From Squalus acanthias (Eukaryota), in assembly GCA_030390025.1 (NCBI GenBank), contig JASTWF010000034.1, positions 1,798,001-1,862,000 of the forward strand: 64,000 nucleotides of DNA. Reading direction: 5' to 3'. Below the pieces are notes generated by a model that made no database searches, was not told the origin of the DNA, and saw nothing but the letters and a program-made list of their open reading frames with translations. The position numbers and the translations under genes were made by a program. Positions within the stretch are counted from its first letter, which is position 1, and each line of letters starts with the position of its first letter. Shown piece after piece: positions 393 to 60,900 of this stretch.

Positions 393-2033
393 TAGTCGAG
401 TCCCATCGTTCCATCACTGGGATATTCTCTCAGATCCCGCCATTTAAGACCATTTATTTGTTATTTCTTTAATCCTGATGGCCTGGTATGGAATAAATCA
501 AAGATCTAGTGTGGGGAAATCCATTTTGTCAGTGGTCTAAACAGAGTGCTAAGGTTGTGAATTTGGAAAGCTTGGGAATTCGGAGCAGAGGGGAAGGAGG
601 AGAGAGCGAGAGGAGCGGCCGGAGATAAAGGTAGGCCAGAGAACCCGGAGCTGGGAGCGAGTGTAAGGGAGTTCGGTAAGTGACATCAGCACAAGGGAAG
701 ACGCTGCAAAGAAAAAATAATATGTTGATTGTGAATTTTTGAAGTCTTGAGTTTAATTCCGTTAAGTTAGTTGGTAGTCTATTAAATAGAGGCATGGCAG
801 GGCACCTCAGTGCCGTGGAATGCACACCTTGTGTCATGTGGGAACTCCAGGACACTTCCCACGGGTTTCGGAGCTTGAGCAGCAGCTGGCGTCACTGCGG
901 TGCATCCGTGTAGCTGAGAGCTCCGTGGATAGCACGTTTCAGGAGGTGGTCACCCAGAAGCATAAGAGTGTGCAGGCAGAGAGGGAATGTGTGACCGTCA
1001 GACAGACAAGGAGAACCATGCATTTAGTGCAGGAGCCCCATGAGTGCATCTCACTCTCGAACCAGTATTCGATGGGTCCGCTGGGGATTACAGCCAGAGC
1101 CAAGTCCATGGCAACACTGGTGGCTGAGTTGTAAGGGGGTGGCAGGAAGGTCGAGAAAGCAATAGTGATAGGAGATTCGATAGTTAAAGGAACAGACAGG
1201 TGTTTCTCCAGCAACAAATGTAACTCCAGAATGATATGTTGCCTCCCTGGTGCCAGGGTCGAGGATGTCACTGAGTGGCTGCAGGACATTCTGAGGGGTG
1301 ATGGTGAACAGACTGAGGTCGTGGTCCATATTGGCATCATCGACATAGGTAGAGAGAGGGATGTGATCCTGTAGGCAGATAATAGGGAGCTAGGAAAGAG
1401 ATTATAAAGCAGGACCTCGAAGGTAGTAATCTCCAGATTACTCCTGGTGCCACGAGCTAGTGAATACAGAAATAGGAGGACAGAGCAATTAAATGTGTGG
1501 CTGGAGATATGGTGCAGGAGGGAGGGCTTTAGATTCCTGGGACATTGGGGTCGGTTCTGGGGGAGGTGGGACCTGAAAAGGCCGGTCGGGTTGCACCTCA
1601 ACAGAGCCGAACCAATATACTCCCGAGATGCGGGCGGGGCTGTTTGCTAGTGCTGTTGGGGAGCGTTTAAACTAATCTGCCAGGGGGATGGGCACCAGGA
1701 TGTGGCATTAGAAAGGAAAAATAAGGTGCACAAAAGATAGGGAGAGACAGATAGCAGTAGAGCATGAAATAGTACGGTATTATGTGGGTTATGTGAGCAG
1801 CAGCGGGAGCAGCGGCGGACGCGGACCTGTTGAGTGCTTTTATAGTGCGGGACGCAGTGGTTGCTGGGTGGGTGATTAATTTTTACCTATATATAAGTTG
1901 GGCGGTTCCTAAACCCGAGACACTACACTTGTAGTGTCCCCCACCCTTCCACCTCCTCTAACCTAAAGGGGGTGAGTGAATATCCGGTAAGCTCTTTCTT
2001 GTTCTAGTTTAATCCGCAAGTTAGCTAGAGGGG

Positions 2034-2961
2034 ATGGCAGGGGAGGCAGTGAAATGTTCCTCCTGCAGAATGTTTGAGGTAAGGGACGCCGTCGGTATCC
2101 CTGCTGATTACACCTGTGGGAAGTGCACCCATCTCCAGCTCCTCGAAAACCGTGTTAGGGAACTGGAGCTGGAGCTGGATGAACTTCGGATCATTCCGGA
2201 GGCAGAGGAGGTCATAGATAGAAGCTTCAGGGATGTAATTACTCCAAAGAATGAAGATAGATGGGTGACGGTGAGAGGGGCTAGGAGGAAGCAGTCAGTG
2301 CAGGGATCCTCTGTGGTCGTTCCCCTCAGTAACAGGTATACCGCTTTGGATACTGTTGAGGGGGACGACCTACCAGTGGTAAGCCACGGTGACCGGATCT
2401 CCGGCGCTGGGTCCGTCCCTGTGGCTCAGAAGGGAAGGGGGGAGAGCAGGAGAGCAATAGTTATTGGGGACTCAATAGTCAGAGGGACAGATAGGAGGTT
2501 CTTTGGCAGCAAAAGAGATGCACGGATGGTATGTTGCCTCCTGGTTTGCCAGGGTCCGTGACGTCTCGGACCGTGTTTTCAGAATCCTCAAGGGGGAGGG
2601 GGAACAATCACAAGTCGTGGTACACATCGGTACCAATGACATAGGTAGGAGAAGGGACGGGGATTTAAAACAGGAATTTAGGGAGCTAGGTTGGAAGCTG
2701 AGAGCCAGTACAAACCATGTTGTAATTTCTGGTTTGTTGCCGGTGCCACGTGCTAGCGAGTTGAGGAACAGGGAGAGAGTGCAGATAAATACGTGGCTGC
2801 AGGGATGGTGTAGCGGGGAGGGTTTCAGTTATGTGGATAATTGGAGCACATTCTGGGGAAGGTGGGACCTGTACAAACAGGACGGTTTGCACCTGAACCA
2901 GAGGGGCACCAATATCCTGGGAGGGAAATTTGCGACGGCTCTTCGGGGGGGTTTAAACTAA
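2034..2961 (+). pseudogene. CR1 ORF1 (zinc finger, coiled coil, SGNH esterase), one frameshift near 2545
   Basis: CSSC..CGKC, LLENRVRELELEL, IGDS, GTND, DGLHL; split across ORFs 2034..2561 and 2503..2961; intact in paralog 29161..30087. Confidence 0.93.
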
Positions 2962-5858
2962 TTTGTCAGGGGGATGGGAAAAAGGGCTGTAGTCCAGGAG
3001 CCAGTGGTGAGTGTAGGGAGGTACTGAGGAGGGTATCAAGGTCGCAGGAATGTACCGGCAGACAGGAAGATGGCTTGAAGTGTGTCTACTTCAATGCAAG
3101 GAGCATCCGGAATAAGGTGGGAGAACTTGGAGCGTGGATTGGTACTTGGGACTACGATGTGGTGGCCATTACGGAGACATGGTTAGAACACGGACAGGAA
3201 TGGTTGTTGGAAGTTCCGGGGTATAGATGTTTCAGTAAGCGTAGGGAAGGTGATCAGAAAGGTGGAGGAGTAGCATTGTTAATCAAGGATAGTTTAACAG
3301 CGGCAGAAAGGCAGTTCGAGGGTATCTGCCGTCTGAGGTAATATGGGCTGAAGTTAGAAATAGGAAAGGAGGGGTCACGTTGTTAGGAGTTTTCTACAGG
3401 CCCCCAAATAGTAATAGAGATGTGGAGGAAGAAATTGCAAAGCAGATTATGAATAGGTGTGGAGGTGACAGAGTAGTTGTCATGGGTGACTTCAACTTTC
3501 CAAATATTGATTGGAACCTTTATAGGTCAAACAGTTCGGATGGGATAGTTTTTGCACAGTGTGTGCAGGAGGGTTTCCTGACACAATATGTGGATAGGCC
3601 GACAAGAGGTAGGGCCACATTGGATTTGGTACTGGGTAATGAACCGGGCCAAGTGTTTGATTTGTTTGTGGGAGAGCACTTTGGAGATAGCGACCACAAT
3701 TCGGTGACTTTCACTATTGCAATGGAGAGGGATAGGGCCATAAGGCAGGGCAGGGTTTATAATTGGGGGAGGGGTAATTATGATGCGATTAGGCAAGAAT
3801 TAGGGAGCATAAGATGGGAACAGAAACTATCAGGGAAAGGCACAAACGAAAAGTGGAGCTTTTTCATGGAGCAATTACTGCGTGTCCTTGATAGGTATGT
3901 CCCTGTCAGGCAGGGAGGAAATGGCCGAGTGAGAGAACCATGGTTCACAAAAGAGGTTGAATGTCTAGTCAAGAGGAAAAAGGAAGCGTATGTAAGGATG
4001 AGAAAACAAGGTTCAGTTGGGTCGATTGAGGGGTACAAGGTAGCAAGAAATGAGCTAAAGAAAGAGCTTAGGAGAGCTAGGAGGGGGGCATGAGAAGTCC
4101 TTGGCGGGTCGGATCAACAAAAACCCCAAGGCCTTTTACTCTTATGTGAAAAATAAAAGAATGACCAGGGTGAGGGTAGGGCCGGTCAAGGACAATAGTG
4201 GGAACTTGTGCATGGAGTCAGAAGAGATAGGAGAGGTGATGAATGAATACTTTTCGTCAGTGTTCACCGAGGAGAGGGGCCATGTTTTTGAGGATGAGAG
4301 TGTGATAAAGGTGGATAGGCTGGAGGAGGTAGATGTACTGAGGGAAGATGTTTTAGCAATTTTGAAGAACCTGAGGGTCGATAAGTCCCCTGGGCCAGAT
4401 GGGATATATCCTAGGATTCTTTGGGAGGCAAGGGAGGAGATTGCAGAGCCTTTGGCTTCGATCTTTGGGTCCTCACTGTCCACGGGGATGGTGCCAGAGG
4501 ACTGGAGAGTGGCGAATGTTGTTCCTCTCTTCAAGAAAGGAAATAGGAATGACCCTGGTAATTATAGGCCGATTAGTCTTACTTCGGTGGTTGGTAAGAT
4601 AATGGAAAAGGTCCCGAGGGATAGGATTTATGACCATTTGGAAAGAGGCAACTTAATCAGGGATAGTCAACACGGATTCGTGAAGGGTAAGTCTTGCCTA
4701 ACAAATTTGATTGAATTCTTTGAGGAGGTAACTAAGTGTGTAGATGAAGGTAGAGCAGTTGATGTCGTATACATGGATTTTAGTAAGGCGTTTGATAAGG
4801 TTCCCCATGGTCGGCTCATGAAGAAAGTAAGGAGTTGTGGGATAGAGGGAAATTTGGCCGATTGGATAAGTAACTGGCTATCTCATAGAAGGCAGAGGGT
4901 GGTGGTGGATGGAAAATTTTCGGACTGGAGACCAGTTACCAGCGGTGTGCCACAGGGGTCGGTGCTGGGTCCTCTGCTGTTTGCGATTTTTATCAATGAC
5001 TTGGAGGAGAGAACTGAAGGGTGGATCAGTAAATTTGCTGATGACACCAAGATTGATGGAGTAGTGGATGAGGTGGAGGGCTGTTGTAGGCTGCAAAGAG
5101 ACATTGATAGGATGCAGAGCTGGGCCGAAAAATGGCAGATGGAATTTAACCCTGATAAGTGCGAGGTGATTCATTTTGGTAGGGCAAATTTGAATAAGGA
5201 TTACAGGGTCAACGGCAGGGTTCTGAGGAACGTGGAGGAACAGAGGGATCTGGGGGTTCATATCCACAGACCTCTGAAGGTTGCCACTCAAGTGGATGGA
5301 GCAGTAAAGAAGGCCTATAGTGTGTTAGCGTTTATTAACAAGGGGTTTGAGTTTAAGAACCGTGAGGTTATGCTACAACTGTACAGGACCTTGGTGAGAC
5401 CACATTTGGAATATTGTGTGCAGTTCTGGTCACCCTACTATAGGAAGGACGTGGAAGCATTGGAAAGAGTGCAAAGGAGATTTGCCAGGATGCTGCCTGG
5501 TTTGGGGAGGAGGTCTTATGAGGAAAGATTGAGGGAGTTAGGGCTTTTCTCTTTAGAGCGGAGGAGGATGAGAGGCGACTTAATAGAGGTTTATAAGATG
5601 ATGAGGGGGATAGATAGAGTAGATGTTCAGAGACTATTTCCTCGGGTGGAGGTAGCCGTTACAAGGGGGCATAACTATAAGGTGCATGGGGGGAGATATA
5701 GAAGGGATGTCCGAGATAGATTCTTTACTCAGAGAGTCGTTGAGGTATGGAATGGACTGCCTGCTGTGATAGTGGAGTCGGACACTTTAAGAACTTTCAA
5801 GCGGTTATTGGATAAGCACATGGAGCACACCAGAATGATAGGGAGTGGGATAGCTTGA
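2952..5858 (+). pseudogene. CR1 ORF2 (APE endonuclease + reverse transcriptase), frameshifts near 3320 and 4090
   Basis: NARSI, ITETW, YRPP, GDFN, LDL, SDH; PGPDG, YRPISL, DFSKAFD, GVPQGSVLGP, FADD. Confidence 0.95.
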
Positions 5859-6032
5859 TCTTGGTTTCGGACAATGCTCGGCACAACATCGAGGGCCGAA
5901 GGGCCTGTACTGTGCTGTACTGTTCTATGTTCTATGTTCAGACTAACAGAGAATCCAAGAAGGTCTAAGATAGAAACAGAAAATGCTGGAAACACTCAGC
6001 AGGTCAGGCAGTATCCGTGGAGAAAGGAACAG

Positions 6033-15307: not shown

Positions 15308-16398
15308 TCATCCCAGAAGCCATCTTCTCAGTAAAGGGTTAGAATCAGTGTCTAATGAGCCAGTCACGGACTGCCCTTGTAGTGGCAACATTGTGCGCCT
15401 CCCTCCCACGTTGGTGCTGCTGATTCTCCTCCTCCTCCTCCTCGCTCTCTTCCTCCTTCTCCTCAGGTGATGCACCAAATCTGGTGGCAATGGCTGGGTC
15501 CTCATGATTGAAATGTTATGAAGCATGCAGCACTCAACAATGAAGAGGAAACTCGCTCGGGAGATTGCTGCAGGGCTCCTCCTGAGGGGTCCAGACACTT
15601 GAACCGTTGTTTCAAGACACCGGTCGTGTGCTCTATGAGGTTCCTGGTGGCGCTATGGCTCTCATTGTATTGCCACTCGGCAGGGGTGTTGGGGTTATGC
15701 AGCGGTGTCATCAGCCAGGTCCTGAGTGGATAACCCTTGCCCCCGAGGAGCCATCCACTAGGTTGACACGATGGTAGGAAGAGGTCTGGCGCAGGATAAA
15801 GTTGTTGTCGCTGCTGCCAGGATAGAGGGCATTGACGGCGAGGATGAGCTGTCTGTGGTCACAGACCAACTGGACATTCAGAGAGTGGATGACCTTGTGG
15901 TTTCTGAAGACCTCTGAATTTACATGAGGTGCCCAAAATGACAGATGCATGCAGTCAAAGGCGCTCTGAACCATGGGGAAGCCCGCTATCCTTGCAAAGC
16001 CACATGCACGTTCGTGCTGTTTGTCCTGGGTCATGGGAAGAAATGTGCTGGCGTCTCCTCTTCTACAAAGCCTTTGACACCTCTCAGATGCAACAATGAA
16101 CAGCGAACTGGGAGATATTCACTATGTCCCCAGTAGAAGCCTGAAAGGAACCGCTGACTTAGAAATTCAGAGCCACTGTCACCCTCACTGCCATCGACAG
16201 AGACGTCCTGGTCCTGAGCTGAGGGTGCAGATCTGGTTGCAGGAGGCGGCAGAGCTCAGTGACCACCTCCTTGCTGAAGTGCGGCCATTGGACACTCTGC
16301 TCCTCAGACAAATGGATATAGGAGGAGAATTGCTCCCTGAATACACTGGGAGGGTAAGGTCTCATGATGGCCCTACTCCCTCTGGTCGCGTTTGCCAC
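15308..16398 (-). pseudogene. Harbinger DDE transposase (HARBI1-like), frameshifted
   Basis: [64 protein letters not shown] across several frames. Confidence 0.92.
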
Positions 16399-17163
16399 TC
16401 TCTCTCTCTCTGCGCCTCTGCTGTCCCCAAGTTAGAGCGGCCCACATCGAAGCTTCTAAATATCGTTAGAAGGAAGGTGAAATAAAAATAACCCTCCAAA
16501 TTGGTGCTCAGGACCCAAAACTCCTTCGGTGAGTGTCGAATCTCTCCAGACGTGTCTCAACCTGCATGTAACAAAAATTTTGCTGACAACAAACGGCAGG
16601 AGGCAACCGCTATTAAATCACGCTCCCCCAGCCACTTCCCGACTTGAAAACATTCCCCATCTACGTGTCGTTCCTAGCTGTAGGCGCTAAGGCAGGGGAC
16701 GCGGCTCAATTTTCAGTCCGGGGCATTACCGGGGAGTTGCATGCTCGACTGATGTCACGATCTGCAGGCGCATGAGATCGTGGCGGCAGTGTTCAGTGCC
16801 AGCGCAAAATGTCTGGTCAATTTCGTGAGCGGCGCTAAAATAGCAGCGCTCGGGCGCTAAGCGCCTATCGCCCCGTTTCCCCTCCCCCCCCCCCCCCGAA
16901 AGTGCTCAGGGGAGCTGCTAACCAACCGACTTTTCCCCCCATGATTATCTGTGTTTCTCGCTTTGTCGTTCCCCATCCCATCCGCTCTGCTGCCAGCTAT
17001 TGATTCTGAAGGTATTTCGTTAAACCAAGATTCAAATGTTCAACTCAAGTAAATTTATTGGAGGTGACTCTTTATTTAACGAATTTCAGTCTACTACCTA
17101 CACTGGACATTAGTATCAGATCAGATGAATGCTGTCTTGGTTTAGGAGACTTTTCACCTAATG

Positions 17164-17295
17164 GCGAAAGGCCATCGACCTGAAACGTTAACTCTGTTTC
17201 TCTCTCTGTCCAAAGATGCTGTCTGACCCGCTGAGTATTTCCATCATTTTCTGTTTTCATTTCAGATTTCCAGAATCCGCAGTATTTTGCTTTTG
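17164..17295 (+). mobile_element. Short Penelope repeat fragment with 13-bp TSD
   Basis: GACCTGAAACGTTAACTC..CCGCAGTATTTTGC; TSD TTTTCACCTAATG at 17151-17163 and 17296-17308; duplicated at ~63584-63713. Confidence 0.8.
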
Positions 17296-18610
17296 TTTTC
17301 ACCTAATGCTCGGTATGGATACTTACAGAGTCACAGGAACAAATCCTGGCAGATCACATCCACATCTTTAAATGTCTGAAATATCCGCTAATCATTCAGT
17401 TCCAGTCAGTGTCTCCTTTCCCACCCTCTCCAGTTCTGCATTATTGGCACTGCTTCTGATGGTTAAAGTAAGATTACAAGGATAATTTACATTCTCACAA
17501 AACGTTAATTCAGACAGATTTCAATACATTTATTTCCAATCGTTGTTTTGAATTTACAATTGGATCCCATGCCCGTCTGTCACAGTTCAGTGGATCTGTC
17601 AGTGAGACCCAGAGTGATTCTCTATTGCCTCCTGCTGTACTTCAGGATAAACAATCCCAGCTGATTGTAACTGAAGTACTGAGGATAAGAAAATCCTTTG
17701 ATATCTTCTCGTCTAATATTCTCTGCACAAGTTGGAAACAACAGGTGAAAAAGTACAAGGATAAATCTCTTCCATTTGTGTTCAGATACTTTACAACAGC
17801 ATTCGGCGGCACTTTGCCTGTGGGTTAAGTCGTCTGATTTCGATGCTGATAAATGCATTTAGTGGGACATTACCTGGTCAATCATCACTATTTACTTTAA
17901 TTCAGAATCCATTATTTGCAATGTTACTTGGCAAATCTTCCTTTCAATGATTTAGAATTTGTATATTTCAACAAAAATGCAGAAAACTCAATCTTTAAAA
18001 CATATCTGATAGCCCAGTTATCTTTGTAACTGCAGTGCCCTTGTATTTATTATCTTAGCATTGTCGTATTACATCAGTACATTTTACTTACAATTGTCTG
18101 TAACTATTGCATGCGAAGGTTGCAGTTTCTGTACTTTGCTGTTGCATTCATTTTCAGTTCTAAATAGAATGGATATTCTAACCAAGAGCAGGAATCCAAG
18201 CGGGATTTCCCCCTCCCTAACACAGGGGCACAGAAGCGAACTGCACCGCTCCAAATGCTGACTGATCCCGGGACACGAAGGCTTCCTGAGAGGGTCTGGT
18301 CCTTTGTGTCCCTGATACCTCGGGCGGTGCTTTTGTCTGCTGGGCTAAATTTAGATCGATCATTTAATCTTTCCTTGATCAAACATCTGTTACTTTCATA
18401 TTGTATTTATTCCCATTTCAGTTACTGATTCCACAATGTATTCCCGATTATTCTTACAATAAGCCCTGTATTCAGCTCTACAGGTAATAGGATTAGATTA
18501 TATCATTCAATGTCGGTTAGAGTTGCAGATTTCACCCCGAATTCCCTCAAACTGCTGCTTTTGCTCCCAGCCTGATGAATAATTTCCCTGTTTATTTCCC
18601 TTCCTCACAG

Positions 18611-19565: not shown

Positions 19566-21198
19566 GTTGGTGCCCCGCCCAAAGATGGCGGCTCCGGGGC
19601 CCCGCACAAAGATGGCGGCCCGGCGTCCCGCACAAAGATGGCGGCACCGGCGCCCCGCACAAAGATGGTGGCATCGGCGCCCCGCACAACAATGGCGGCT
19701 CTGGGGCACAGCACAAAGATGGCGGCTCCGCATAAAAATGGCGACTCTGGTTACTGCACAAAAATGGCGGCTCCGGGGCCCCGCACAAAGATGGCGGCTC
19801 TGGGGATCCGCACAAAGATGGCGGCTCTGGGGCCACCCACAAAGATGGCGGCTCTGGGTCCTGCACTAAGATGGCGGCTCTGGGGAACAACAAAAACATG
19901 GCGGCTCTGGGGTTCCGCAAAGATTTGGCGGTTCTGGGACGCCGCACGAGTATGGCGGCTTTGGGGCCCAGCACAAATATGGCGGCTCTGTAGACTCCCG
20001 CCCAAAAATGGCGGGCGACGGGCCCGCACAAAAATTGCGGTTCTGGGGCCCAGCACAAAGATGGCTGCTCCGGGTCCCATACAAAAATGGCAGCTCCGGG
20101 GCCCAGTACAAAGATAGCGGCTCCGGGGCCCAGCACAAAGATGGCGGCTCCAGGGCCCAGCACAAAAATGGCGGCTCCGGGGCCCAGCACAAAGATGGCG
20201 GCTTCGCGGCCCCGCACAAAGATGGCGGCTCCGGGGCCCCGCACAACAATGGCGGCTCTGGGGCTCCGCAGAAAAATGGCGGCTCCGGAGCCCCGCACAA
20301 ATATGGCGGCTCCGTGCCCAGCACAAAAATGGTGGCTCCGGGGCCCCGCACAATAATGGCGGCGCCTGCGCCGGACTGAAAAATGGTGGCTCTGTAGCCC
20401 CGCACAAAGATGGTTGCTCTGGGGTCCCAACAAAATGGCGGCTCTAGGGCCCCGCACAAAGATGGCGGCTCTGGGGTCCGCAAAAAGTTGGCGGCTCTGT
20501 AGACTCCCGCCCAAAAATGGCGGGTCTGGGGCCCCGCACAAAGATGGAGGCTCTGGGGACCCGCTCAAAGAATGCGGCTCTGGGGCCCAGCACAAAGATA
20601 GCGGCACCGGGGCCCAGAACAAATATGGCGGCTCTGGGGCCCAGCTCAAAGATGGCGGCTCCGGGGCCCAGCACAAAAATGGTGGCTCCGGGGACCAGCA
20701 CAAAGATGGCGGCTCCGGGGCCCCGCACAACAATGGCGACTCTGGGGCCACGCACAAAGATGGCGGCTCCGGGTCCCCGCAAAACTATGGCGGCTCCGCG
20801 GCCCCGAACAAAGATGGCGGCGCTGGGGCACAGCACAAGTATGGCGGCTCCGTGCCAAGCACAAAGATGGCGGCTCCGGGGCTCCGCACAAAAATGGCGG
20901 CTCCTGCGGCGGACTGAAAGATGGCGGCTCTGGAGCCACGCACAAAGATGGTGGCTCTGGGGCCCGAACAAAGATGGCGGCTCTGCGGCCCCGCACAAAG
21001 ATGGCAGCTCTGGGGCCCTGCACAAAGATGGCAGCTCTGGGGCCCCACACGATGATGGCGGCACAGGGGACACCCACAAAGATGGCGGCTCTGGGGCCCC
21101 GCACAAAGATGGTGGCTCCTGGGCCCCGCACAAGGATTGCGGCTCTGGGGCACCGCACAAGGATTGCGGCTCTGGGGCTCCGCACAAGGATTGCGGCA
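19566..21198. repeat. 27-bp GC/CpG-rich minisatellite, ~60 units, most carrying AAGATGGCGGC or a close variant
   Basis: Unit GCACAAAGATGGCGGCTCCGGGGCCCC; 9-aa periodicity in ORFs on both strands. Confidence 0.97.
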
Positions 21199-22120: not shown

Positions 22121-22371
22121 CGAAATAATAAAATAGGATTCAAATCAATGATTTTATAATTCATTGATTGAAACCAGATGAGGCCTGTGATCAGAGCGGG
22201 GCGTCAAGTACGCTAAACAAATTGTCAACACCATTTGGATCTCCAATTCTATCGTTGTATGATTGATACTACTCACACTTTCCTAATTTCCCAATCATTA
22301 CGAAAGGTGCTTGATAAAGTATCAGATAATACCAAAATTGAAGCCCATGGGATTAAAGTGGCAGTGACAAC

Positions 22372-24732: not shown

Positions 24733-27700
24733 GGGGTATGTAAAAGAGTGTTACAATCAGGAGTGTGGGTTATATCAGAGTGTTGCAGTGAGAGGTGTGT
24801 GGTTTATCTGTGAAAGTATAAGCCATATAACCTATTCAGAAAAATACACCATTCTATCAAAGAAGAGTAAAACAAGGTTACACTGCAGTAGCAGTAAATT
24901 GGCACAGCAAGCAGTGGAAACCAGTTTTCTAATCAATCAGCAGGAGTGACTCATTTGGCTGTAAACAAACAGTAAAAAAGACCAGTGTAAGGGCGAACCA
25001 GCACTGAGTGCAAGTCAGCAGAGGGTGCTGTGAGTTTGGGTAAGTGGGAGTAGTTCTTTAATTGTTAGTTTTCTTTAAATCAGTCTTGATAAGAGTACTT
25101 AAGCAGTTTAAGTGAAGGGGAAAAGTTAACTATTTGGGTTTCTGTTGGTTGAAGAAGAGCAAAACAAGGTTACACTGCAGTAGCAGTAAATTGGCACAGC
25201 AAGCAGTGCAAACCAGTTTTCTAATCAATCAGCAGGGGTCAAAGTCAGAGGGCGGGGCCAATTCATTGGTACCCGTATATAGGTGGAGCTGTTGCTTCCA
25301 GTGTCCCTGACAACTATGTGTGCAGGAAGGGCGTCCAGCTGCAGCTCCTGACGGACAGCATGGCGGGACTGGAGCTGCGGATGGACTCACTCTGGAGCAT
25401 CCACGATGCCGAGAACTTTGTGGATTACTCATTTAGTGAGTTGAACACACCGCGGGTAAAGGCTAGGTCAGACAGTAAATGGGTAACCAAGAGGCAGGGC
25501 AATATCAGGAAGGTAGTGCAGGAGTCTCCTGCGGTCGTCTCCCTCCAAAACAGATATACCGTTTTGGATACTGTTGGGGGAAATGACCTACCAGGGGAAG
25601 GCACCAGCAGCCAGGTTCATGGCACCATGGCTGGCTCTGCTGCACAGCAGGGCGGGAAAAAGAGTGGTAGAGCTATAGTGATAGGGGACTCAATTGTAAG
25701 GGGAATAGACAGGAGTTTATGTGGCCGCAACCGAGATTGCAGGATGGTATGTTGCCTCCCTGGTGCAAGGGTCAAGGATGTCTCGGAGCGGCTGCAGAAC
25801 ATTCTGGAAAGGGAGGGTGAAGAGCCAGCTGTCGTGGTGCATGTAGGTACCAACGATATAGGTAAAAAGCGGGAAGAGGTCCTACAAGCAGAATTTAGGG
25901 AGCTAGGAGCTAAATTGAAAAGTAGGACCTCAAAGGTAGTAATCTCTGGGTTGCTACCAGTCCCACGTGCTAATCAGAGTAGCATGAACAGGATAGCGAG
26001 ATTAAATACGTGGCTTGAGCAGTGGTGCAGGAGGGAGGTATTCAACTACCTGAGGCATTGGAACCAGTTCTGGGGGAACTGGGACCTGTACAAAAGGGAC
26101 GGTCTGCACTTGGGCAGGACTGGAACCGATGTCCTCGGGGTAATATTTGCTAAGGCAGTTCGGGAGGATTTAAACTAATATGGCAGGGGAATGGGAACCT
26201 ATGTAGCGAAACAGGGGGAAGTAATATGCAGTCAGAAACAAATGTTAGAAGGGTGAGAAACATTAAGGGGAATCCGAGTAAACAAAGGCAAGAAACACAA
26301 AGGGCCATACTAAATCATAAGTCTAAAAGGACAAAGGGTGTTAATAAAACAAGCCTAAAGGCTCTGTGTCTTAATGCAAGGAGTATCCGTAATAAGGTGG
26401 ATGAATTGACTGTGCAAATTGATGTTAACGGATATGATGTGATTGGGATTACAGAGACGTGGCTCCAGAACAATCAAGGCTTGGGACTGAATATCCAGGG
26501 GTATTCAACATTCAGGAAGGATAGAATAAAAGGAAAAGGGGGTGGGGTAGCATTGCTGGTTAAAAAGGAGATTAATGCAATAGCTAGGAAGGACATTAGC
26601 TTGGAGGATGTGGAATCAATATGGGTTGAGCTGCAGATCACCAAAGGGCGGAAAACGTTAGTGGGGGTTGTGTACAGACCTCCTAACAGTAGTAGTGAGG
26701 TGGGGGAGGGTATGAAACAGGAAATCAGAGGTGCATGCAAAAAAGGCGCAGCAGTTATCATGGGTGACTTTAATATGCATATAGATTGGGCTACTCAAAC
26801 TGGAAGCAATACGGTGGAGGAGGATTTCCTGGAGTGTTTAAGGGATGGTTTCCTAAACCAATATGTTGAGGAACCAACTAGAGGGGTGGCCATCCTGGAC
26901 TGGGTGTTGTGTAATGAGGAAGGACTAATCAGCAATCTTGTGGTGCGAGGCCCCTTGGGGAAGAGTGACCATAGTATGGTGGAGTTCTACATTAGGATGG
27001 AGAAGGAAACAGTTAATTCAAAGACCATGGTCCAGAACTTAAATAAGGGCAACTTTGAGGGTATGAGGCGTGAATTGGCGAGGTTAGATTGGCAAGCGAT
27101 ACTTAAGGGGTTATCAGTGGAAGGGCAATGGCAGACATTTAGAGATCGATTGGATGAACTACAACAATTGTACATCCCGGTCTGGCGTAAAAATAAAAAA
27201 GGGAAGGTGGCTCAACCATGGCTAACAAGGGAAATCAGGGATAGTACTAAAAGCAAGGAAGTGGCATACAAATTGATCAGAAGTAGCAGCAAACCCGGGG
27301 ACTGGGAGAACTTTAAAACTCAGCAGAGGAGGACGAAGGGTTTGATTATGGCAGGGAAAATAAAATATGAAAGGAAGCTTGCGGAGAACATTAAAACGGA
27401 CTGCAAAAGCTTCTATAAATATGTAAAAAGAAAGAGGTTAGTAAAAACAAACATAGGTCCCCTGCAGTCAGAAACAGGGGAAGTCATAATGGGGAACAAA
27501 GAAATGGCAGATCAATTGAACAAGTACTTTGGTTCGGTGTTTACTGTGGAGGACACAAACAACCTTCCGGAAATAAAAGAGATCAAAGGATCTGGTAAGA
27601 GGGAGGAGCTGAGGGAAATCCTTATCAGTCGGGAAAAGGTGTTGGGGAAATTGATGGGACTGAAGGCTGATAAATCCCAAGGGCCTGATGGTCTGCATCC

Positions 27701-28839: not shown

Positions 28840-31800
28840 GAGGCGGAGGACTCAAGAGGCGACGGCGACCAGATAGGCCCACAGAGGCGGCGGACCTGGG
28901 TGGAGCGGCTGCGGCGAGGCGGAGGACTCAAGAGGCGGCGGCGACCAGGTAGGCCCACAGAGGCTTTTAAAGTGCGGGACGCAGTGGTTGCTGGGTAGAT
29001 GATACATTTTTACCTGTATATAAGTTGGGCGGTTCCTAAACCCGAGACACTACACTTGTAGTGTCCCCCACCCTTCCTCCTCCTCTAACCTAAAGGAGGT
29101 GAGTGACTATCAGGTAAGCTCTTTTTTGTTCTAGTTTAATCTGCAAGTTAGCTGGAGGGGATGGCAGGGGAGGCAGTGAAATGTTCCTCCTGCAGAATGT
29201 TTGAGGTGAGGGACGCCGTAGGTGTCCCTGCTGATTACACCTGTGGGAAGTGCACCCATCTCCAGCTCCTCGAAAACCGTGTTAGGGAACTGGAGCTGGA
29301 GCTGGATGAACTTCGGATCATTCGGGAGGCAGAGGAGGTCATAGATAGAAGCTTCAGGGATGTAATTACTCCAAAGCATGAAGATAGATGGGTGACGGTG
29401 AGAGGGGCTAGGAGGAAGCAGTCAGTGCAGGGATCCTCTGTGGTCGTTCCCCTCAGTAACAGGTATACCGCTTTGAATACTGTTGAGGGGGACGACTTAC
29501 CAGTGGTAAGCCACGGTGACCGGATCTCCGGCGCTGGGTCCGTCCCTGTGGCTCAGAAGGGAAGGTGGGAGAGCAGGAGAGCAATAGTTATTGGGGACTC
29601 AATAGTCAGAGGGACAGATAGGAGGTTCTGTGGCAGCAAAAGAGACTCACGGATGGTATGTTGCCTCCCGGGTGCCAGGATCCGTGACGTCTCGGAACGT
29701 GTTTTCAGAATCCTCAAAGGGGAAGGGGAACAATCACAAGTCGTGGTACACATCGGTACCAACGACATAGGTAGGAGAAGGGACGGGGATTTAAAACAGG
29801 AATTTAGGGAGCTAGGTTGGAAGCTGAGAGCCAGTACAAACCATGTTGTAATTTCTGGTTTGTTGCCGGTGCCACGTGCTAGCGAGTTGAGGAACAGGGA
29901 GAGAGTGCAGATAAACACGTGGCTGCAGGGATGGTGTAGGGGGGAGGGTTTCAGTTATGTGGATAATTGGAGCACATTCTGGGGAAGGTGGGACCTGTAC
30001 AAACAGGACGGTTTGCACCTGAACCAGAGGGGCACCAATATCCTGGGATGGAAATTTGCTACGGCTCTTCGGGGGGGTTTAAACTAATTTGTCAGGGGGA
30101 TGGGAAAAAGGGCTGTAGTCCACGAGCCAGTGGTGAGTGTAGGGAGGTACTGAGGAGGGTATCAAGGTCGCAGGAATGTACCGGCAGACAGGAAGATGGC
30201 TTGAAGTGTGTCTACTTCAATGCAAGGAGCATCCGGAATAAGGTAGGAGAACTTGGAGCGTGGATTGGTACTTGGGACTACGACGTGGTGGCCATTACGG
30301 AGACATGGTTAGAACAGGGACAGGAATGGTTGTTGGAAGTTCCGGGGTATAGATGTTTCAGTAAGAGTAGGGAAGTTGGTAAGAAAGGTGGAGGAGTAGC
30401 ATTGTTAATCAAGGATAGTTTAACAGCGGCAGAAAGGCAGTTCGAGGGGGATCTGCCGTCTGAGGTAATATGGGCTGAAGTTAGAAATAGGAAAGGAGCG
30501 GTCACGTTGTTAGGAGTTTTCTACAGGCCCCCAAATAGTAATAGAGATGTGGAGGAAGAAATTGCAAAGCAGATTATGAATAGGTGTGGAGGTCACAGAA
30601 TAGTTGTCATGGGTGACTTCAACTTTCCAAATATTGATTGGAACCTTTATAGGTCAAACAGTTCGGATGGGATAGTTTATGCACAGTGTGTGCAGGAGGG
30701 TTTCCTGACACAATATGTGGATAGGCCGACAAGAGGTGGGGCCACGTTGGATTTGGTACTGGGTAATGAACCGGGCCAATTGTTTGATTTGTATGTGGGA
30801 GAGCACTTTGGAGATAGTGACCACAATTCGGTAACTTTCACTATTGCAATGGAGAGGGATAGGGCCATACGGCAGGGCAGGGTTTATAATTGGGGGAGGG
30901 GTAATTATGATGCGATTAGGCAAGAATTAGGGAGTATAAGATGGGAACAGAAACTATCAGGGAAAGGCACAAACGAAAAGTGGAGCTTTTTTATGGAGCA
31001 ATTACTGCGTGTCCTTGATAGGTATGTCCCTGTCAGGCAGGGAGGAAATGGCCGAGTGAGAGAACCATGGTTCACAAAAGAGGTTGAATGTCTAGTCAAG
31101 AGGAAAAAGGAAGCGTATGTAAGGAGGAGAAAACAAGGTTCAGTTGGGTCGATTGAGGGGTACAAGGTAGCAAGGAATGAGCTTAAAAAATAGCTTAGGA
31201 GAGCTAGGAGGGGGCATGAGAAGTCCTTGGCGGGTCGGATCAAGAAAAACCCCAAGGCTTTTTACTCTTATGTGAGAAATAAAAGAATGACCAGGGTAAG
31301 GGTAGGGCCGGTCAAGGACAGTAGTGGGAACTTGTGCATGGAGTCAGAAGAGATAGGAGAGGTGATGAATGAATACTTTTCGTCAGTGTTCACCGAGGAG
31401 AGGGGCCATGTTCTTGAGGATGAGAGTGTGATAAAGGTGGATAGGCTGGAGGAGGTAGATGTTCTGAGGGAAGATGTTTTAGCAATTTTGAAGAACCTGA
31501 GGGTCGATAAGTCCCCTGGGCCAGATGGGATATATCCTAGGATTCTTTGGGAGGCAAGGGAGGAGATTGCAGAGCCTCTGGCTTTGATCTTTGGGTCCTC
31601 ACTGTCCACTGGGATGGTGCCAGAGGACTGGAGAGTGGCGAATGTTGTTCCTCTCTTCAAGAAAGGAAATAGGAATGACCCTGGTAATTATAGGCCGGTT
31701 AGTCTTACTTCGGTGGTTGGTAAGATAATGGAAAAGGTCCTGAGGGATAGGATTTATGACCATTTGGAAAGGGGCAACTTAATCAGGGATAGTCAACACG

Positions 31801-36050: not shown

Positions 36051-36241
36051 TGTCCATTACTCTGTATCTAATCCATGGGTACCTGCCTGTTCCAATGAAA
36101 GGTCAACGACCTGAAACCTGTAGGGGTAGAGGGAATTTAAAAGGTAGGTTTGATTTTATATTTTGTTTTCAGGGACTTAACTCCTGGACCTAAGATAAAT
36201 AAGTTTAAATTTTAGTAATAAAGTAACATAAGGGTTAAGTC

Positions 36242-37186
36242 ATGACAGGAAGTCTCGGACCCGTTTCATGCTCCTCCTGTGCCATGTGGGAAACCAGGGA
36301 CACTTCCAGTGTCCCTGACAACTACGTGTGCGGGAAGTGTGTCCAGCTGCAGCTCCTGACAGCCAGCATGGCGGTGCTGGAGCTGCGGGTGGACTCACTC
36401 TGGAGCATGCACGATGCCGAGAACTCGGTGAATCGCTCATTTAGTGAGTCGTCCACACCGCAGGTAAAGGCTAGGACAGACAGTGAATGGGTGACCAAGA
36501 AGCAGGGCAATATCAGGAAGGTAGTGCAGGAGTCCCCTGTGGTCATCTCCCTCCAAAACAGGTATGCCGCTTTGGATACTGTTGGGGGAGATGGCCTCCC
36601 AGGGGAAGGTACCAGCAGCCAGGTTCATGGCACCATGGCTGGCTCTGCTGCACAGCAGGGCGGGAAAAAGAGTGGTAGGGCTATAGTGATAGGGGACTCA
36701 ATTGTAAGGGGAATAGATAGGAGTTTCTGTGGCCGCAACCGAGATTCCAGGATGGTATGTTGCCTCCCTGGTGCAAGGGTCAAGGATGTCTCGGAGCGGC
36801 TGCAGAACATTCTGAAGATGGAGGGTGAACAGCCAGCTGTCGTGGTGCATGTAGCTACCAACGATATATGTAAAAAGCGGGAAGAGGTCCTACAAGCAGA
36901 ATTTAGGGAGCTAGGAGCTAAATTAAAAAGTAGGACCTCTAAAGTAGTAATCTCTGGATTGCTACCAGGGCCACGTGCTAATCAGAATAGAGAGAACAGG
37001 ATAGTGAGATTGAATACGTGGCTTCAGCAGTGGTGCAGGAGGGAGGGATTCAAATTCCTGAGGCATTGGAACCAGTTCTGGGAGAAGTGGGACCTGTACA
37101 AAAGGGACGGTCTGCACTTGGGCAGGACTGGAACCGATGTCCTCGGGGTAATATTTGCTAAAGCAGTTCGGAAGGATTTAAACTAA
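36242..37186 (+). CDS. Intact CR1 ORF1p, 314 aa
   Basis: CSSC..CGKC, IGDS, DGLHL; uninterrupted. Confidence 0.9.
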   Translation: MTGSLGPVSCSSCAMWETRDTSSVPDNYVCGKCVQLQLLTASMAVLELRVDSLWSMHDAENSVNRSFSESSTPQVKARTDSEWVTKKQGNIRKVVQESPVVISLQNRYAALDTVGGDGLPGEGTSSQVHGTMAGSAAQQGGKKSGRAIVIGDSIVRGIDRSFCGRNRDSRMVCCLPGARVKDVSERLQNILKMEGEQPAVVVHVATNDICKKREEVLQAEFRELGAKLKSRTSKVVISGLLPGPRANQNRENRIVRLNTWLQQWCRREGFKFLRHWNQFWEKWDLYKRDGLHLGRTGTDVLGVIFAKAVRKDLN

Positions 37187-40166
37187 TATGGCAGGGGAAT
37201 GGGAACCTATGTAGCGAAACAGGGGGAAGTAATATGCAATCAGAAACAAATGTTAGAAGGGTGAGAAACAATAGGGGAAGGCCGAGTAAACAAAGGGAAG
37301 AAACACAAAGGGCCATACTAAATCATAAGTCTAAAAGGACAAAGGATGTGAATAACAGAAGCCTAAAGGCTCTGTGTCTTAATGCAAGGAGTATCCGTAA
37401 TAAGGTGGATGAATTGACTGTGCAAATAGATGTTAACGGATATGATGTGATTGGGATTACAGAGACGTGGCTCCAGAACAATCAAGGCTGGGAACTGAAC
37501 ATCCAGGGGTATTCAACATTCAGAAAGGATAGAAAAAAAGGAAAAGGGGGTGGGGTAGCATTGCTGGTTAAAGAGGAGATTAATGCAATAGCTAGGAAGG
37601 ACATCAGCTTGGAGGATGTGGAATCAATATGGGTTGAGCTGCAGAACACCAAAGGGCAGAGAACGTTAGTGGGAGTTGTGTACAGACCTCCAAACAGCAG
37701 TAGTGAGGTGGGGGAGGGTATGAAACAGGAAATCAGAGGTGCGTGCAAAAAAGGCACGGCAGTTATCATGGGTGACTTTAATATGCATATAGATTGGGCT
37801 ACTCAAACTGGAAGCAATACGGTGGAGGAGGATTTCCTGGAGTGTTTAAGGGATTGTTTCCTAAACCAATATGTTGAGGAACCAACTCGAGGGGAGGCCA
37901 TCCTGGACTGGGTGTTGTGTAATGAGGAAGGACTAATCAGCAATCTTGTGGTACGAGGCCCCCTGGGGAAGAGTGACCATAGTATGGTGGAGTTCTACAT
38001 TAGGATGGAGAAGGAAACAGTTAATTCAGAGACCATGGTCCAGAACTTAAATAAGGGCAACTTTGAGGGTATCAGGTGTGAATTGGCGAGGTTAAATTGG
38101 CAAGCGATATTTAAGGGGCTATCAGTGGAAGGGCAATGGCAGACATTTAGAGATCGCATGGATGAACTACAACAATTGTACATCCCGGTCTGGCGTAAAA
38201 ATAAAAAAGGGAAGGTGGCTCAACCATGGCTAACAAGGGAAATCAGGGATAGTATTAAAACCAAGGAAGTTGCATACAAATTGGCCAGAAGTAGCAGCAA
38301 ACCCGGGGACTGGGAGAACTTCAAAACTCAGCAGAGGAGGACGAAGGGTTTGATTAGGGCAGGGAAAATAAAATATGAAAGGAAGCTTGCAGAGAACATT
38401 AAAATGGACTGCAAAAGCTTCTATAAGTATGTAAAAAGAAAGAGGTTAGTAAAAACAAACGTAGGTCCCCTGCAGTCGGAAACAGGGGAAGTCGTAATGG
38501 GGAACAAGGAAATGGCGATCAATTGAACAAGTACTTTGGTTCGGTGTTTACTGTGGAGGACACACACAACCTGCCGGAAATAAAAGGGGTCAGAGGATCT
38601 GGTAAGAGGGAGGAGCTGAGGGAAATCCTTATTAGTCGGGAAAAGGTATTGGGGAAATTGATGGGACTGAAGGCTGAAAAATCCCCGGGGCCTGATGGTC
38701 TGCATCCCAGAGTACTTAAGGAGGTGGCCTTGGAAATAGTGGATGCATTGACGATCATTTTCCAACATTCCTTAGACTCTGGATCAGTTCCGATGGAGTG
38801 GAGGGTGGCCAATGTAACCCCTCTTTTTAAAAAAGGAGGGAGGGAGAAAGCAGGGAATTATAGACCGGTCAGCTTGACATCGGTCGTGGGTAAAATGATG
38901 GAAGCAATTATTAAAGATGTCATAACAGACCATTTGGTAAGTGGCGACATGATAGGTCCAAGTCAGCATGGATTTGTGAAAGGGAAATCATGCTTGACAA
39001 ATCTGGAATTTTTTGAGGATATTTCCAATAGGGTGGACAGGGGGGAACCAGTAGTTGTGGTGTATTTGGACTTTCAGAATGCCTTCGACAAGGTCCCACA
39101 CAAGAGATTGGTGTGCAAAGTTAAAGCACATGGGATTGGGGGTAATGTGTTGACGTGGATTGAGAACTGGTTGGCACACAGGAAACAAAGAGTAGGAGTA
39201 AATGGGTACTTTTCAGAATGGCAGGCAGTGACCAGCGGGGTACCGCAGGGTTCGGTGCTGGGACCCCAGCTGTTTACATTATATATTAATGATTTGGACG
39301 AAGGGATTAAAAGTAATATCTCCAAATTTGCGGATGACACTAAATTGGGAGGCAGTGTGAACAATGAGGAGGATGCTAGGAGGCTACAGAGTGACTTGGA
39401 CAGGTTGGGTGAATGGGCAAATGTATGGCAGATGAAGTACAATGTGGATAAATGTGAGGTTATCCACTTTGGTGGTAGAAATAGAGAGGCGGACTATTAC
39501 CTGAATGGTGGCAGATTTGGGAAAGGGGAGGTGCAACGAGACATGGGCGTCATGGTACATCAGTCACTGAAGGTGGGAATGCAAGTGCAGCAGGCAGTCA
39601 AGAAAGCAAACGGAATGATGGCCTTCATAGTAAGGGGATTTGAGTACAGGAGTAGGGAGGTGATGCTGCAGTTGTACAGGGCCTTGGTGAGGCCACACCT
39701 GGAGTATTGTGCGCAGTTTTGGTCTCCGAACTTAAGGAAGGACATTCTTGCTATTGAGGGAGTGCAGCGAAGGTTCACTAGATTGATTCCTGGGATGGCC
39801 GGACTGACATATCAAGAAAGATTGGGTCAACTGAACTTGTATCCTCTGGAGTTCAGAAGAATGAGGGGGGATCTTATAGAGACATTTAAAATCCTGACTG
39901 GTTTAGACAAATTAGATGCGGGTAGAATGTTCCCAATGTTAGGGAAAACTAGAACCAGGGGTCACAGTCTAAGGATTAAGGGGAAGCCATTTAAGACTGA
40001 GCTGAGGAGGAACTTCTTCACCCAGAGAGTGGTGAATCTATGGAATTCTCTTCCACAGAAGGTTGTTGAGGCCAGTTCGCTAAATATATTCAAAAGGGAG
40101 TTAGATATAATACTCACAACTAGGGGGATCAAGGGGTATGGCGAGAAAGCAGGAATGGCGTACTGA
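37177..40166 (+). pseudogene. CR1 ORF2 APE-RT with one frameshift
   Basis: ORFs 37234..38526 and 38523..40166; full motif set. Confidence 0.93.
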
Positions 40167-44842: not shown

Positions 44843-44879
44843 TACTCTCTTCCACATAATAACTGTGTATAATAGACCC

Positions 44880-48857: not shown

Positions 48858-49122
48858 ACAACAACAACTTATATTTATATAGCGCCTTTAACGTAGTAAA
48901 ACATCCCAAGGCGCTTCACAGGAGTGCTATCAAACAACATTTGACATCGAGCCACATAAGGAGATATTTGGGCAGATAGCCAAAAGCTTGGTGAAAGAGG
49001 TAATTTTTAAGGAGCGTCTTGATTGAGGAGAGAGAGGCAGAGAGGTTTACGGACAGAATTCCAGAGCTTAGGGCCCAGGCAGCTGAAGGCATGGCCACCA
49101 ATGGTGGAGCGATTAAAATCAG
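48858..49122 (-). mobile_element. L2 LINE 3' end
   Basis: CAACAAC tail, TTTATATAGCGCCTTT; ORF 48916..49242 includes SIKTLLKNYLF. Confidence 0.7.
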
Positions 49123-57949: not shown

Positions 57950-60900
57950 CTTCTTCATCCCAGAGGCCATCATCTCAGTAAAGGGTTAGAATCAGTGTCT
58001 AATGAGCCACTCACGGACGGCCCTTTCAGTGGCAACATTGTGCGCCTCCCTCCCACGTTGGTGCTGCTGATTCTCCTCCTCCTCCTCTCCCTCTTGCTCC
58101 TCCTCCTCAGGTGGTGCACCAATCCCTGGTGGCAATGGCTGGGTCCTCATGTTTGCAATGTTATGAAGAATGCAGCACTCAACAATGAAGAGGGAATCTC
58201 GCTCTTGAGATTACTGCAGGGCTCCTCCTGAGTGGTCCAGACAACCGAACCGCTTCCTGTGTCCCTGACGACCATATGTGTGGGAAGTGTATGCAGCTGC
58301 AGCTACTGATGGACCGCATTGCAGCACTGGAGCTGCGGATGGATGCATATTGGAGCATTCGCGACGCTGAGAACGTCGTGGATAACACGTTTAGCGAGTT
58401 GGTCACACCGCAGGTAAAGGGTGTACAGGCAGGAAGTGAATGGGTGACCACCAGGCAGAGGAAGAGGTGCAGGCAGTTAGTGCAGGGGTCCCCTGTGGCC
58501 ATCCCCCTCTCAAACAGATATACCACTTTGGATGCTGTTGGGGGAGATGACTTATCAGGGGAAGGCAGCAGCAGCCAACTTCCTGGCACCATGGGTGGCT
58601 CTGCTGCACAGGCTGTGAGGAAAAAGTGTGGAAGAGCTATAGTGATAGGGGATTCAATTGTAAGGGGAATAGATAGGCGTTTCTGCGGCCGCAACGAGAC
58701 TCTAGGATGGTGTGTTGCCTCCCTGGTGCAAGGGTCAAGGACGTCTCGGAGCGGCTACAGAACATTTTGGAGGTAGGGGGGCGAACAGCCAGTTGTCGTG
58801 GTGCACATAGGCATCAACGATATAGGTAAAAAATGGGATGAGGTCCTAAAAGCAGAATATAGGGAGTTAGGAGGTAAATTAAAAAATACTACCTCAAAGC
58901 TAGTAATCTCAGGATCGCTACCTGTGTCATGTGGTAGTCTGAGTAGAAATAGGAGGATAGTTCTACTGAATACGTGGCTAGAGGAATGGTGCAAGGGAGA
59001 GGGATTCAAATTCCTTGGATATTGGAACCGGTTCGGGGAAGGTGGGAGCAGTACAAACGGGACGGTTTGCACCTGGGCAGGGCCGGGACCGATGTCCTAG
59101 GGGGAGTGTTTGCTAGTGCTGTTGGGGAGGGTGGATGAATTAGCTGCGCAAATAGTGGTTAATGAATACGATTTGATTTGGATTACAGAAACATGGCGCC
59201 AGGGTGGCCAAGGCTGGGAACTCAACATCCAGGGTTATTCAATATTTAGGAAAGATGGGCAAAAAAGAAAAGGAGGTGGGGTAGCATTGCTGGTTAAAGA
59301 GGGGATTAACACAATTGAAAGGAAGGATATTAGCTCTGATGATGTGGAATCTGTATGTGTAGAACTGAGAAATAACAAGGGGCAGAAAACGTTTGTGGGA
59401 GTGTTATTTAGACCTCCAAACAGTAATACGGAGGTTGGGGACGGCATTAAAAGGGAAATTAGAGAAGCATGCCGTAAGGGTACAGCAGTCATCATGGGTG
59501 ACTTTAATTTACATATAGATTGGGCTAACCAAATTAATAAAAATACTGTGGAGGAGGAATTCCTGGAATGTTTACGTCATGGTTTTCTGGAACAATATGT
59601 CGAGGAACCAACAGATATCAGGCCATCTTAGACTGGGTATTATGTAACGAGAAAGGATTAATTAGCAATCATGTCGTACGAGGCCCCTTGTGTCAGAGTA
59701 ATCATAATATGATAGAATTCTTCATTAGGATGGAGGGTGAAGTAGTTGAATCAGAGACTAGGGTCCTGAATTTAAATAAAGGAAACTACGATGATATGAG
59801 GCGCGAATTGAGTAGGATTGATTGGGGAATGTCACTCAAAGGGTTGACGATGGATAGGCAATGGCAAACATTCAAAGACTGCATGGATGAACTACAAAAT
59901 TTGTTCATCCCAGTGTGGCATAAGAATAAAACAAAAAGGGTGACTCAACCGCGGCTAACAAGGGAAATTAGGGATAGCATAAGATCCAAGGAGAGTGCAT
60001 ATAAATTGGCCAGAAAAAGCGGTAACCCTGAGGATTGGGAGTAGTTTAGGATTCAACAAAGGAGGACAAAGGGATTGATTAAGAAGGGGAAAATAGAATA
60101 TGAAAGTAAGCTTTCAGGGAACATAAAAACTGACTGTAAGAGCTTTTATAGATATGTGAAGAGAAAAAGATTAGTGAAATCAAGTGTAGGTGCCGTGCAG
60201 TAAGAAGTGGGGGAAGTTATAATGGGGAACAAAGAAATTCCAGGCCAATTAAATGCATATTTTGGTTCTGTCTTCACAAAGGAGGACACAAATAACCTCC
60301 CAGAGATGCTGGATAACATACGGTCTGATGAAAGGGAGGAACTGAAAGAAATCAGTATTTGCAGGGAAATGGTGTTAGGGAAATTGACGGGATTGAAGGC
60401 CGATAAATTCCCAGGGCCTGATAATCTACATCCTAGGGTACTTAAGGAACTGGCCCTAAAAATAGTAGATGCATTGCTGATCATCTTCCAACATTCGATG
60501 GAATCTGGAAATGTACCCATGGATTGGAGGGTAGCTAATGTTACCCCACTATTCAAAAAGGGTGGTAGAGAGAAAGCGGGGAATTACAGACTGGTAAGCC
60601 TGACATCGGTAGTGGGGAAATTGCTAGAGTCCATTATAAAGGATGTAATAGCTGAGTACTTGTAAAACAGTGACTGGAGCGGACAAAGTCAACATGGATT
60701 GACAAAAGGTAAATCGTGCTTGACTAATCTACTGGAATATTTTGAGGATGTAACTGGGAAAATAGATAAGGGAGAACCAGTAGATGTGGTGTATTTGGAC
60801 TTTCAAAAGGCTTTCGATAAGGTCCTGTATAAGAGATTAGCGTGTAAAGTTAAGGCACATGGGATTGGGGGCAAGGTATTGACATGGATAGAGAACTGGT

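Follow-up and report, generated by a model that had tools for sequence, protein, structure and literature searches.

A phased U_UUA_AAC heptamer at the ORF1/ORF2 junction of esterase-encoding CR1 elements suggests programmed -1 frameshifting

Introduction

How does a CR1 retrotransposon translate its second open reading frame (ORF2), which encodes the endonuclease and reverse transcriptase (RT)? The question is raised by a 64,000-nucleotide stretch of Squalus acanthias DNA (GCA_030390025.1, contig JASTWF010000034.1, positions 1,798,001 to 1,862,000; here ‘the window’, numbered from its first letter), in which copies of this long interspersed nuclear element (LINE) share an unusual ORF1/ORF2 junction. 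In most vertebrates the CR1 group dominates among retrotransposons (PMC13343379), and translation of LINE ORF2 has been called unclear (PMC3708506, PMC5009743). From comparison of sequences we propose, with a probability of roughly 0.8, that programmed -1 frameshifting at U_UUA_AAC yields a fusion of ORF1, apurinic endonuclease (APE) and RT, beside an excess of the ORF1 protein (ORF1p).

The ORF1/ORF2 junctions of the window

The sequence TTTAAACTAA occurs at 1666, 2952, 26169, 30078 and 37177, on the + strand only (five occurrences, against a mean of 0.20 and a largest value of 2 in 100 shuffles). All five end the ORF1 frame with x-Leu-Asn-stop (T_TTA_AAC_TAA), and in the -1 frame they encode FKL-I-[CW]-QG[DN]G, which continues into the endonuclease. 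The first-pass annotation had reported TTTAAAC with an adjacent TAA, phased in ORF1 and with ORF2 in the -1 frame; this is confirmed at every one of the five junctions, that of family A included, as is a G-rich block about 8 nt downstream, since CAGGGGRATGGG begins 8 nt 3' of the heptamers and its G-run after exactly 10 nt.

The junctions belong to three families that are 66-69% alike in ORF1, namely A (1666), B (2952 and 30078, 97.6% identical) and C (26169 and 37177, 92.7% identical). In the family A copy the last 29 codons are in phase with the heptamer, with a break further upstream. The features concerned, with the sixth ORF1-bearing element of the window, are as follows.

2952..2958 (+): slippery heptamer TTTAAAC of family B copy 1, phased U_UUA_AAC in ORF1
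2959..2961 (+): ORF1 stop TAA, directly 3' of that heptamer (TAG or TGA in relatives)
2959..2968 (+): 10-nt spacer of fixed length, made of the stop and 7 variable bases
2969..2978 (+): G-rich block GGGGGATGGG, with its GGGG core at offset 10; candidate frameshift stimulator
2034..2961 (+): family B copy 1 ORF1, with N-terminal CxxC pairs, SGNH esterase and LN-stop end; broken near 2540
2958..5858 (+): family B copy 1 ORF2 in the -1 frame, with leader, APE endonuclease (NARS at 3093-3104) and reverse transcriptase; broken near 3320 and at 4060-4090
5923..5939 (+): 3' tail of family B copy 1, TTCTATG repeats
1666..1692 (+): family A cassette, heptamer 1666-1672, G block 1683-1692
26169..26195 (+): family C copy 1 cassette, G block 26186-26195
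30078..30104 (+): family B copy 2 cassette, G block 30095-30104; ORF1 unbroken at 29161-30087
37177..37203 (+): family C copy 2 cassette, G block 37194-37203
59120..59140 (+): sixth ORF1-bearing element (58246-61985), cassette and ORF2 leader deleted at about 59130

The statement that the heptamer marks every intact junction also stands (5/5), because the sixth element lost its junction by deletion near 59130; there, the end of ORF1 meets the endonuclease region directly, and the two sides share a short GGT where they join.

ORF1 encodes an SGNH esterase, with Lipase_GDSL_2 found by Pfam in all four window ORF1 stretches that cover the domain, and it matches the solved esterase of zebrafish ZfL2-1 (4C1B) with an E value of 1.7e-46; ORF2 encodes an APE endonuclease and then an RT (Exo_endo_phos and RVT_1, Pfam). 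Four element ends carry tandem repeats of TTCTATG / TTTCTATG instead of poly(A), for which we take the tail of the chicken CR1 consensus to be the comparison. The closest named ORF1 homologues come from sharks and rays, and the RT region is 46-52% identical to four bird-annotated LINE proteins; membership of CR1 is probable, judged from domains, tails and this RT identity. Canonical vertebrate CR1s encode an esterase ORF1 (PMC13343379). A protein labelled as coming from Pseudomonas (P0006) is 73% identical to window ORF1.

The heptamer in related elements

DNA of bird-type elements, which resemble the bird-annotated proteins, was collected by scanning metagenomes for the degenerate motif VCCLPGA[RK][VI], which takes no account of the junction (41 loci), and a distant family was represented by 16 loci on contigs filed with bacterial genomes, which are presumably animal host DNA; this family is 33-36% identical to the window elements in ORF1 and 33-36% in ORF2. 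Loci that end before the junction or have no C-terminal match were dropped (27 of the 41 and 1 of the 16). The bird-type junctions then read TTTAAAC in 13 cases and TTTAAAA in one (n=14), the distant ones TTTAAAC in 14 cases and TTTAAAG in one (n=15), and four further distant-family copies, from the assembly that supplied 13 of the 15, carry the heptamer in 4/4. Eleven of the 14 bird-type heptamers fall exactly where the protein alignment, made without the last six residues, projects them. Pooled over the three distant groups, 34 junctions give 32 TTTAAAC, one TTTAAAA and one TTTAAAG; the first-pass annotation had named free synonymous variation of the heptamer as what would refute its claim, and no such variation is seen. 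Viral-contig scans (4/4) gave no CR1 loci, their single locus (L044) being without such a junction, and genome-contig scans gave usable junctions in one case out of five. The ‘bacterial’ contigs bearing many animal-type LINE copies (L045-L060, and G001 with 17.8 Mb) are themselves a sign of host contamination.

Among proteins, LN ends ORF1 in 70 of the 86 homologues that have a DGLH-like motif, and the LN-ending set includes named sharks, rays, a teleost, coelacanth, frogs, turtles and squamates; four frame-broken homologue proteins read FKL at the junction. The heptamer signal is real and ancient, and it is probably functional.

Constraint at the level of nucleotides

In the combined window and bird-type set (19 junctions), T always fills the wobble position ahead of Leu (25% of four-fold ORF1 sites), the Leu codon is always TTA (background 9%) and the Asn codon is AAC in 18 (background 51%). 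The invariant residues VCCLPGA, taken as controls in the 17 copies that yielded them, use 4, 2, 1, 4, 3, 3 and 4 codons respectively, and third positions upstream of the heptamer agree in only 37-79% of cases, while the stop that follows it may be TAA, TAG or TGA. Because Leu is TTA in 19/19 whereas the invariant VCCLPGA residues have mostly mixed codons, the constraint falls on the nucleotides and not on the protein. Moreover, in 10 of the 19 junctions the -1 frame is interrupted 2-7 codons 5' of the heptamer, and plain overlap coding therefore cannot hold the F-K residues there. Conservation at synonymous positions, expected of a programmed -1 site, is accordingly observed.

Assembled contigs of three sequencing runs, compared over 29890-30330, have 18 variant sites in 30004-30070 and zero in 30071-30122; other, divergent families align in these contigs as far as 30104-30105 and then diverge.

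The tails of more distant ORF1 proteins show a related pattern. Among the best 150 distant representatives, 98 have a defined tail, and these end in LN (49), GN (11) or KN (3), against a background of 4.9% for all slippery-compatible dipeptides together; these three dipeptides correspond to the heptamers U_UUA_AAC, G_GGA_AAC and A_AAA_AAC, all of them among the four sites that PMC5009743 lists as most prone to shifting. In a pool of 147 proteins (25 clusters at 60%), the preceding residue fits the base that each heptamer needs in 116/117 LN, 25/25 GN and 5/5 KN cases (background 80-85%), and Gln stands before GN in 20/25 and before LN in 0/117, as G_GGA_AAC and U_UUA_AAC respectively require.

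Some proteins instead have KN a few residues before the end (P0214, P0218, P0227, P0228, P0262, P0264) or GF/FF one residue before it (P0172, P0208, P0241, P0247), and these offset tails may mark slip sites (A_AAA_AAC, G_GGU_UUU or U_UUU_UUN) that no stop directly follows; no DNA of these proteins was recovered.

The downstream G-run

Of 32 scorable junctions, 29 have a GGGG beginning at an offset of exactly 10 nt from the heptamer, two have it at 9 or 11 nt (31 within 9-11 nt) and one lacks it, against a background of 0.9% per position. The Gly that it encodes in the ORF2 frame is GGG in 17/17 copies, against 30-41% elsewhere in ORF2, and the flanking residues vary. A second GGG is present in window and bird-type copies; the distant families keep one G-run only.

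Folding of the 3' sequence, which the first-pass annotation had suggested as a check, predicted no canonical structured stimulator: local z scores lie between -0.8 and +1.9 (10/10 folds) and between -1.3 and +1.4 (17/17), with no stable structure; no stable first stem is predicted 5-9 nt downstream, in folds that do not directly model pseudoknots; families B and C have no long-range partner in common, their best partners differing; and Rfam gave 0 matches for the junction. Across 17 junctions, quadruplex patterns of three tiers occur in none and of two tiers in 11, with a quadruplex predicted in two. The fold test being negative, the signal is not of the coronavirus type with a pseudoknot. GGGG is instead a conserved, unstructured motif 9-11 nt downstream, as in the arterivirus type of signal.

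Proposed mechanism

We infer, as the first-pass annotation did, that these elements make an ORF1-APE-RT fusion by -1 frameshifting in the manner of gag-pol. In support, the heptamer is conserved, X_XXY_YYZ is in phase with the upstream ORF in window, bird-type and distant junctions, and the downstream ORF lies in the -1 frame and is open from the slip site, many individual copies having since decayed. Most ribosomes would terminate at the adjacent stop and release ORF1p, whilst a minority would re-pair tRNA-Leu and tRNA-Asn on UUU AAA and continue in the -1 frame, such that the family B trans-frame junction would read GGLN/LICQGDG and slippage would set the ratio of ORF1p to fusion. We further suggest, less firmly, that the G-run lies at the ribosomal mRNA entry channel and stimulates the shift, an effect to which slow termination at the neighbouring stop may contribute.

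[quoted passage not shown] Given frameshifting, action of the G-run through such a protein is a tentative suggestion to which we would give somewhat less than even odds; long-range pairing, a weak quadruplex or direct contact with the ribosome may be its role instead. On a bolder model, and a rather unlikely one taken as a whole, CR1s with an esterase ORF1 would, across animals, rely on a -1 frameshift that is activated by a protein and predates the divergence of sharks and birds; in it, a slip site (U_UUA_AAC, replaced by G_GGA_AAC or A_AAA_AAC in other lineages) is followed by a stop, a 10-nt spacer and a G-run free of structure, to which a protein of the host or the element binds.

Where ORF2 could start bears directly on the proposed frameshift. 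The NARS motif of CR1 ORF2 is, we assume, homologous to the Asn site of the L1 and Zorro3 endonucleases. In those two enzymes the matching Asn is needed (PMC1965478). The first in-frame Met stands at codon 164 and NARS at codon 45 in family B (the 30078 copy), and at 51 against 37 and 56 against 42 in distant families; of nine representative lineages, seven could be scored, and the first in-frame AUG comes after NARS in three of them and before it in four. The claim that family B has no AUG between junction and NARS holds for the ORF2 frame and fails for the other frames, which carry AUGs, one of them inside the G block. In the 30078 copy an ATG does stand in frame 10 codons upstream, but the T that it depends on, at 30049, is peculiar to that copy: at this position the three contig sets read G in about 100%.

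The AUG inside the G block lies in the ORF1 frame (2974-2976, and the matching position of the remaining four copies) and opens a short frame; as a candidate start it was rejected, since it is confined to the window families and missing in bird-type and distant copies.

Weighing the evidence and the alternatives

Several observations weigh against frameshifting as proposed, besides the lack of predicted structure, of a shared pairing partner and of an Rfam match, and the four lineages in which an AUG precedes NARS. One control codon, that of the second Cys, is as invariant as the heptamer (TGC, 17/17); contig variants near the ends of aligned pieces were possibly under-reported; and three of the 14 bird-type junctions, as well as L055, had to be positioned by their nearest heptamer because of indels. 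The junctions represent about nine lineages by kinship, one assembly supplying 8 of the 14 bird-type loci and one supplying 13 of the 15 loci of the distant family. In the distant proteins, 35 of the 98 tails are other dipeptides, the putative GN and KN slip sites are read from protein, and DNA of GN/KN families was found neither by five scans with GN- and xKN-tail alignments nor in the genomes G001-G003. A raw RNA run (X21) gave 0 reads on the stretch examined. No family with an unbroken in-frame ORF1-ORF2 was present among 13 longer proteins, in what was a weak search; these 13 are gene-model fusions with irregular joins. Finally, of the 19 junctions from the window and the bird-type elements, 6 carry an in-frame AUG as codon 1 or 2 of ORF2.

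This last point leads to the alternative that survives best, and that we nevertheless consider improbable: a separate ORF2 protein made by termination-reinitiation, the ribosome restarting near the ORF1 stop at an AUG or non-AUG codon, as in SART1 and probably L1, with the G-run serving to retain it. One of the six AUGs takes the form UAAUG (L020), the overlapping arrangement used by SART1 (PMC3708506), an AUU, AUC or AUA overlaps the stop in all five window copies, and initiation of L1 ORF2 is AUG-independent (PMC5009743). Reinitiation, however, explains neither why the wobble T and the TTA that precede the stop do not vary nor the LN/GN/KN pattern; the candidate start shifts or disappears by lineage (TCG, TGG, GAC; GTT-TCG and GTT-GGG in distant families), and UGGGA lies upstream in only 10 of 17 junctions, at scattered offsets. 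The junctions have, then, neither a conserved start at the stop nor the conserved upstream UGGGA expected from SART1 and from a termination upstream ribosome-binding site (TURBS); the TURBS-like UGGGA was rejected as a candidate on that ground. Bird-type lineages that have the AUG would allow reinitiation, and some lineages may use both routes.

A second alternative, which we regard as very unlikely, holds that the pattern reflects needs of the proteins (the LN end of the esterase and a G-x-G in the ORF2 leader) or an RNA element unrelated to translation, acting in packaging, nuclear export or transcription. The prevalence of LN among DGLH-like homologues (70/86) and the coding of Gly by the G-run in the ORF2 frame would both fit, but protein needs do not account for fixed synonymous positions, 4C1B aligns only as far as ISRLLR and not over the LN columns, and several relatives end otherwise; an unrelated RNA element would have no reason to keep ribosomal phase or to switch among X_XXA_AAC forms.

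Splicing at the junction, joining ORF1 to ORF2 or exposing ORF2, is scarcely credible: a branch-like CTAAT, an acceptor-like CAG/G and an intronic-type G-run can be read there, CTAAT...CAG/G occurring in all five window copies, and gene predictors join both ORFs in several annotated proteins, but the predicted joins sit at different places, there is no pyrimidine tract, and the acceptor was rejected as not conserved, with AG absent in L010, L014, L020, L021 and L031; two joints seen in contigs are neither of them GT..AG and none occurs in the presumed RNA run, a weak point since contigs drop rare forms.

Relation to known systems

Programmed -1 frameshifting in CR1 would resemble retroviral gag-pol and coronavirus 1a/1b in having X_XXY_YYZ in the upstream frame and the polymerase in the -1 frame, and gag-pol in fusing a structural protein to RT; in Rous sarcoma virus, too, the stop directly follows the slip site. 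Unlike those systems, which have a stem-loop or pseudoknot 5-9 nt downstream, CR1 has none predicted, and, unlike retroviruses, it is a non-LTR (long terminal repeat) element without a protease. SART1 and mammalian L1 share with CR1 a bicistronic LINE RNA in which ORF2 is coupled to translation of ORF1, but they make a separate ORF2 protein (ORF2p) by reinitiation and no fusion. Zebrafish ZfL2-1, of the L2 clade, has a homologous esterase ORF1, whose aligned part is without the LN end. Its ORF2 reportedly needs translation of ORF1 and is probably reached by stop-codon suppression (work attributed to Kajikawa and colleagues, 2012), which would also give a fusion, by read-through of an in-frame stop as opposed to a -1 shift.

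The same heptamer U_UUA_AAC is that of infectious bronchitis virus (PMC5009743). The closest parallel to the G-run is the -2/-1 frameshift in PRRSV nsp2, which is stimulated by nsp1beta with PCBP and has a short, conserved, single-stranded motif 10 nt past the slip site (range 9-11 nt) with no obvious RNA structure (PMC4937337, PMC7618472); the arterivirus motif is C-rich (CCCANCUCC) whereas that of CR1 is G-rich, the slip sites differ, and a trans-acting factor is known for the arterivirus only. Among APE-type non-LTR elements, Dictyostelium TRE5-A and TRE3-A both need a -1 frameshift for ORF2 according to the legend of a review (PMC5911963), which, in the part covered, gives neither a slip site nor a test; the text covered of another TRE paper (PMC5006619) does not mention a frameshift for TREs. 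These elements differ from CR1 in having an unrelated ORF1 and an amoebozoan host.

We found no report of CR1 frameshifting in a literature search that left subscription papers, Repbase and Dfam notes and supplements outside its reach. A 2026 survey of CR1 (PMC13343379) does not, in the text covered, use the words frameshift, overlap or translation, and ‘CR1’ is absent from the covered text of PMC5009743.

The 27-nt cassette makes the question of ORF2 translation directly testable. If the proposed frameshift is true, CR1 ORF2p would be a Gag-Pol-like fusion carrying a membrane-binding esterase, annotation of ‘intact’ CR1 with an ATG-started ORF2 would be wrong at the N-terminus, and the criteria by which frameshift sites are sought in cellular genomes would be broadened by a G-run stimulator that has no structure. 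If activation by a protein is also true, the junction would correspond, as a resident of genomes, to the PCBP mechanism of arteriviruses, and would be a switch that times RT production by the dominant LINE of birds, reptiles and sharks.

Other features of the window

Both family B copies are nested in other CR1 copies (1800-5940 and 28840-33066). Copy 1 follows the family A junction, with endonuclease-like sequence again near 6722, and copy 2 splits a family C ORF2, which picks up again at 33066.

A DDE_Tnp_4 endonuclease match, at 61802-62473 (-) and 15602-17582, lies within a 2-kb repeat that is present twice at 89%. A stop-free frame at 18586-19512 matches a rhodopsin-family seven-transmembrane receptor (E 3.4e-20) and is followed by a tandem repeat. 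Degenerate tandem repeat arrays occupy 19567-21197, 22362-23890, 34539-36052, 44866-46500 and 46738-48860, the second and third of which are related.

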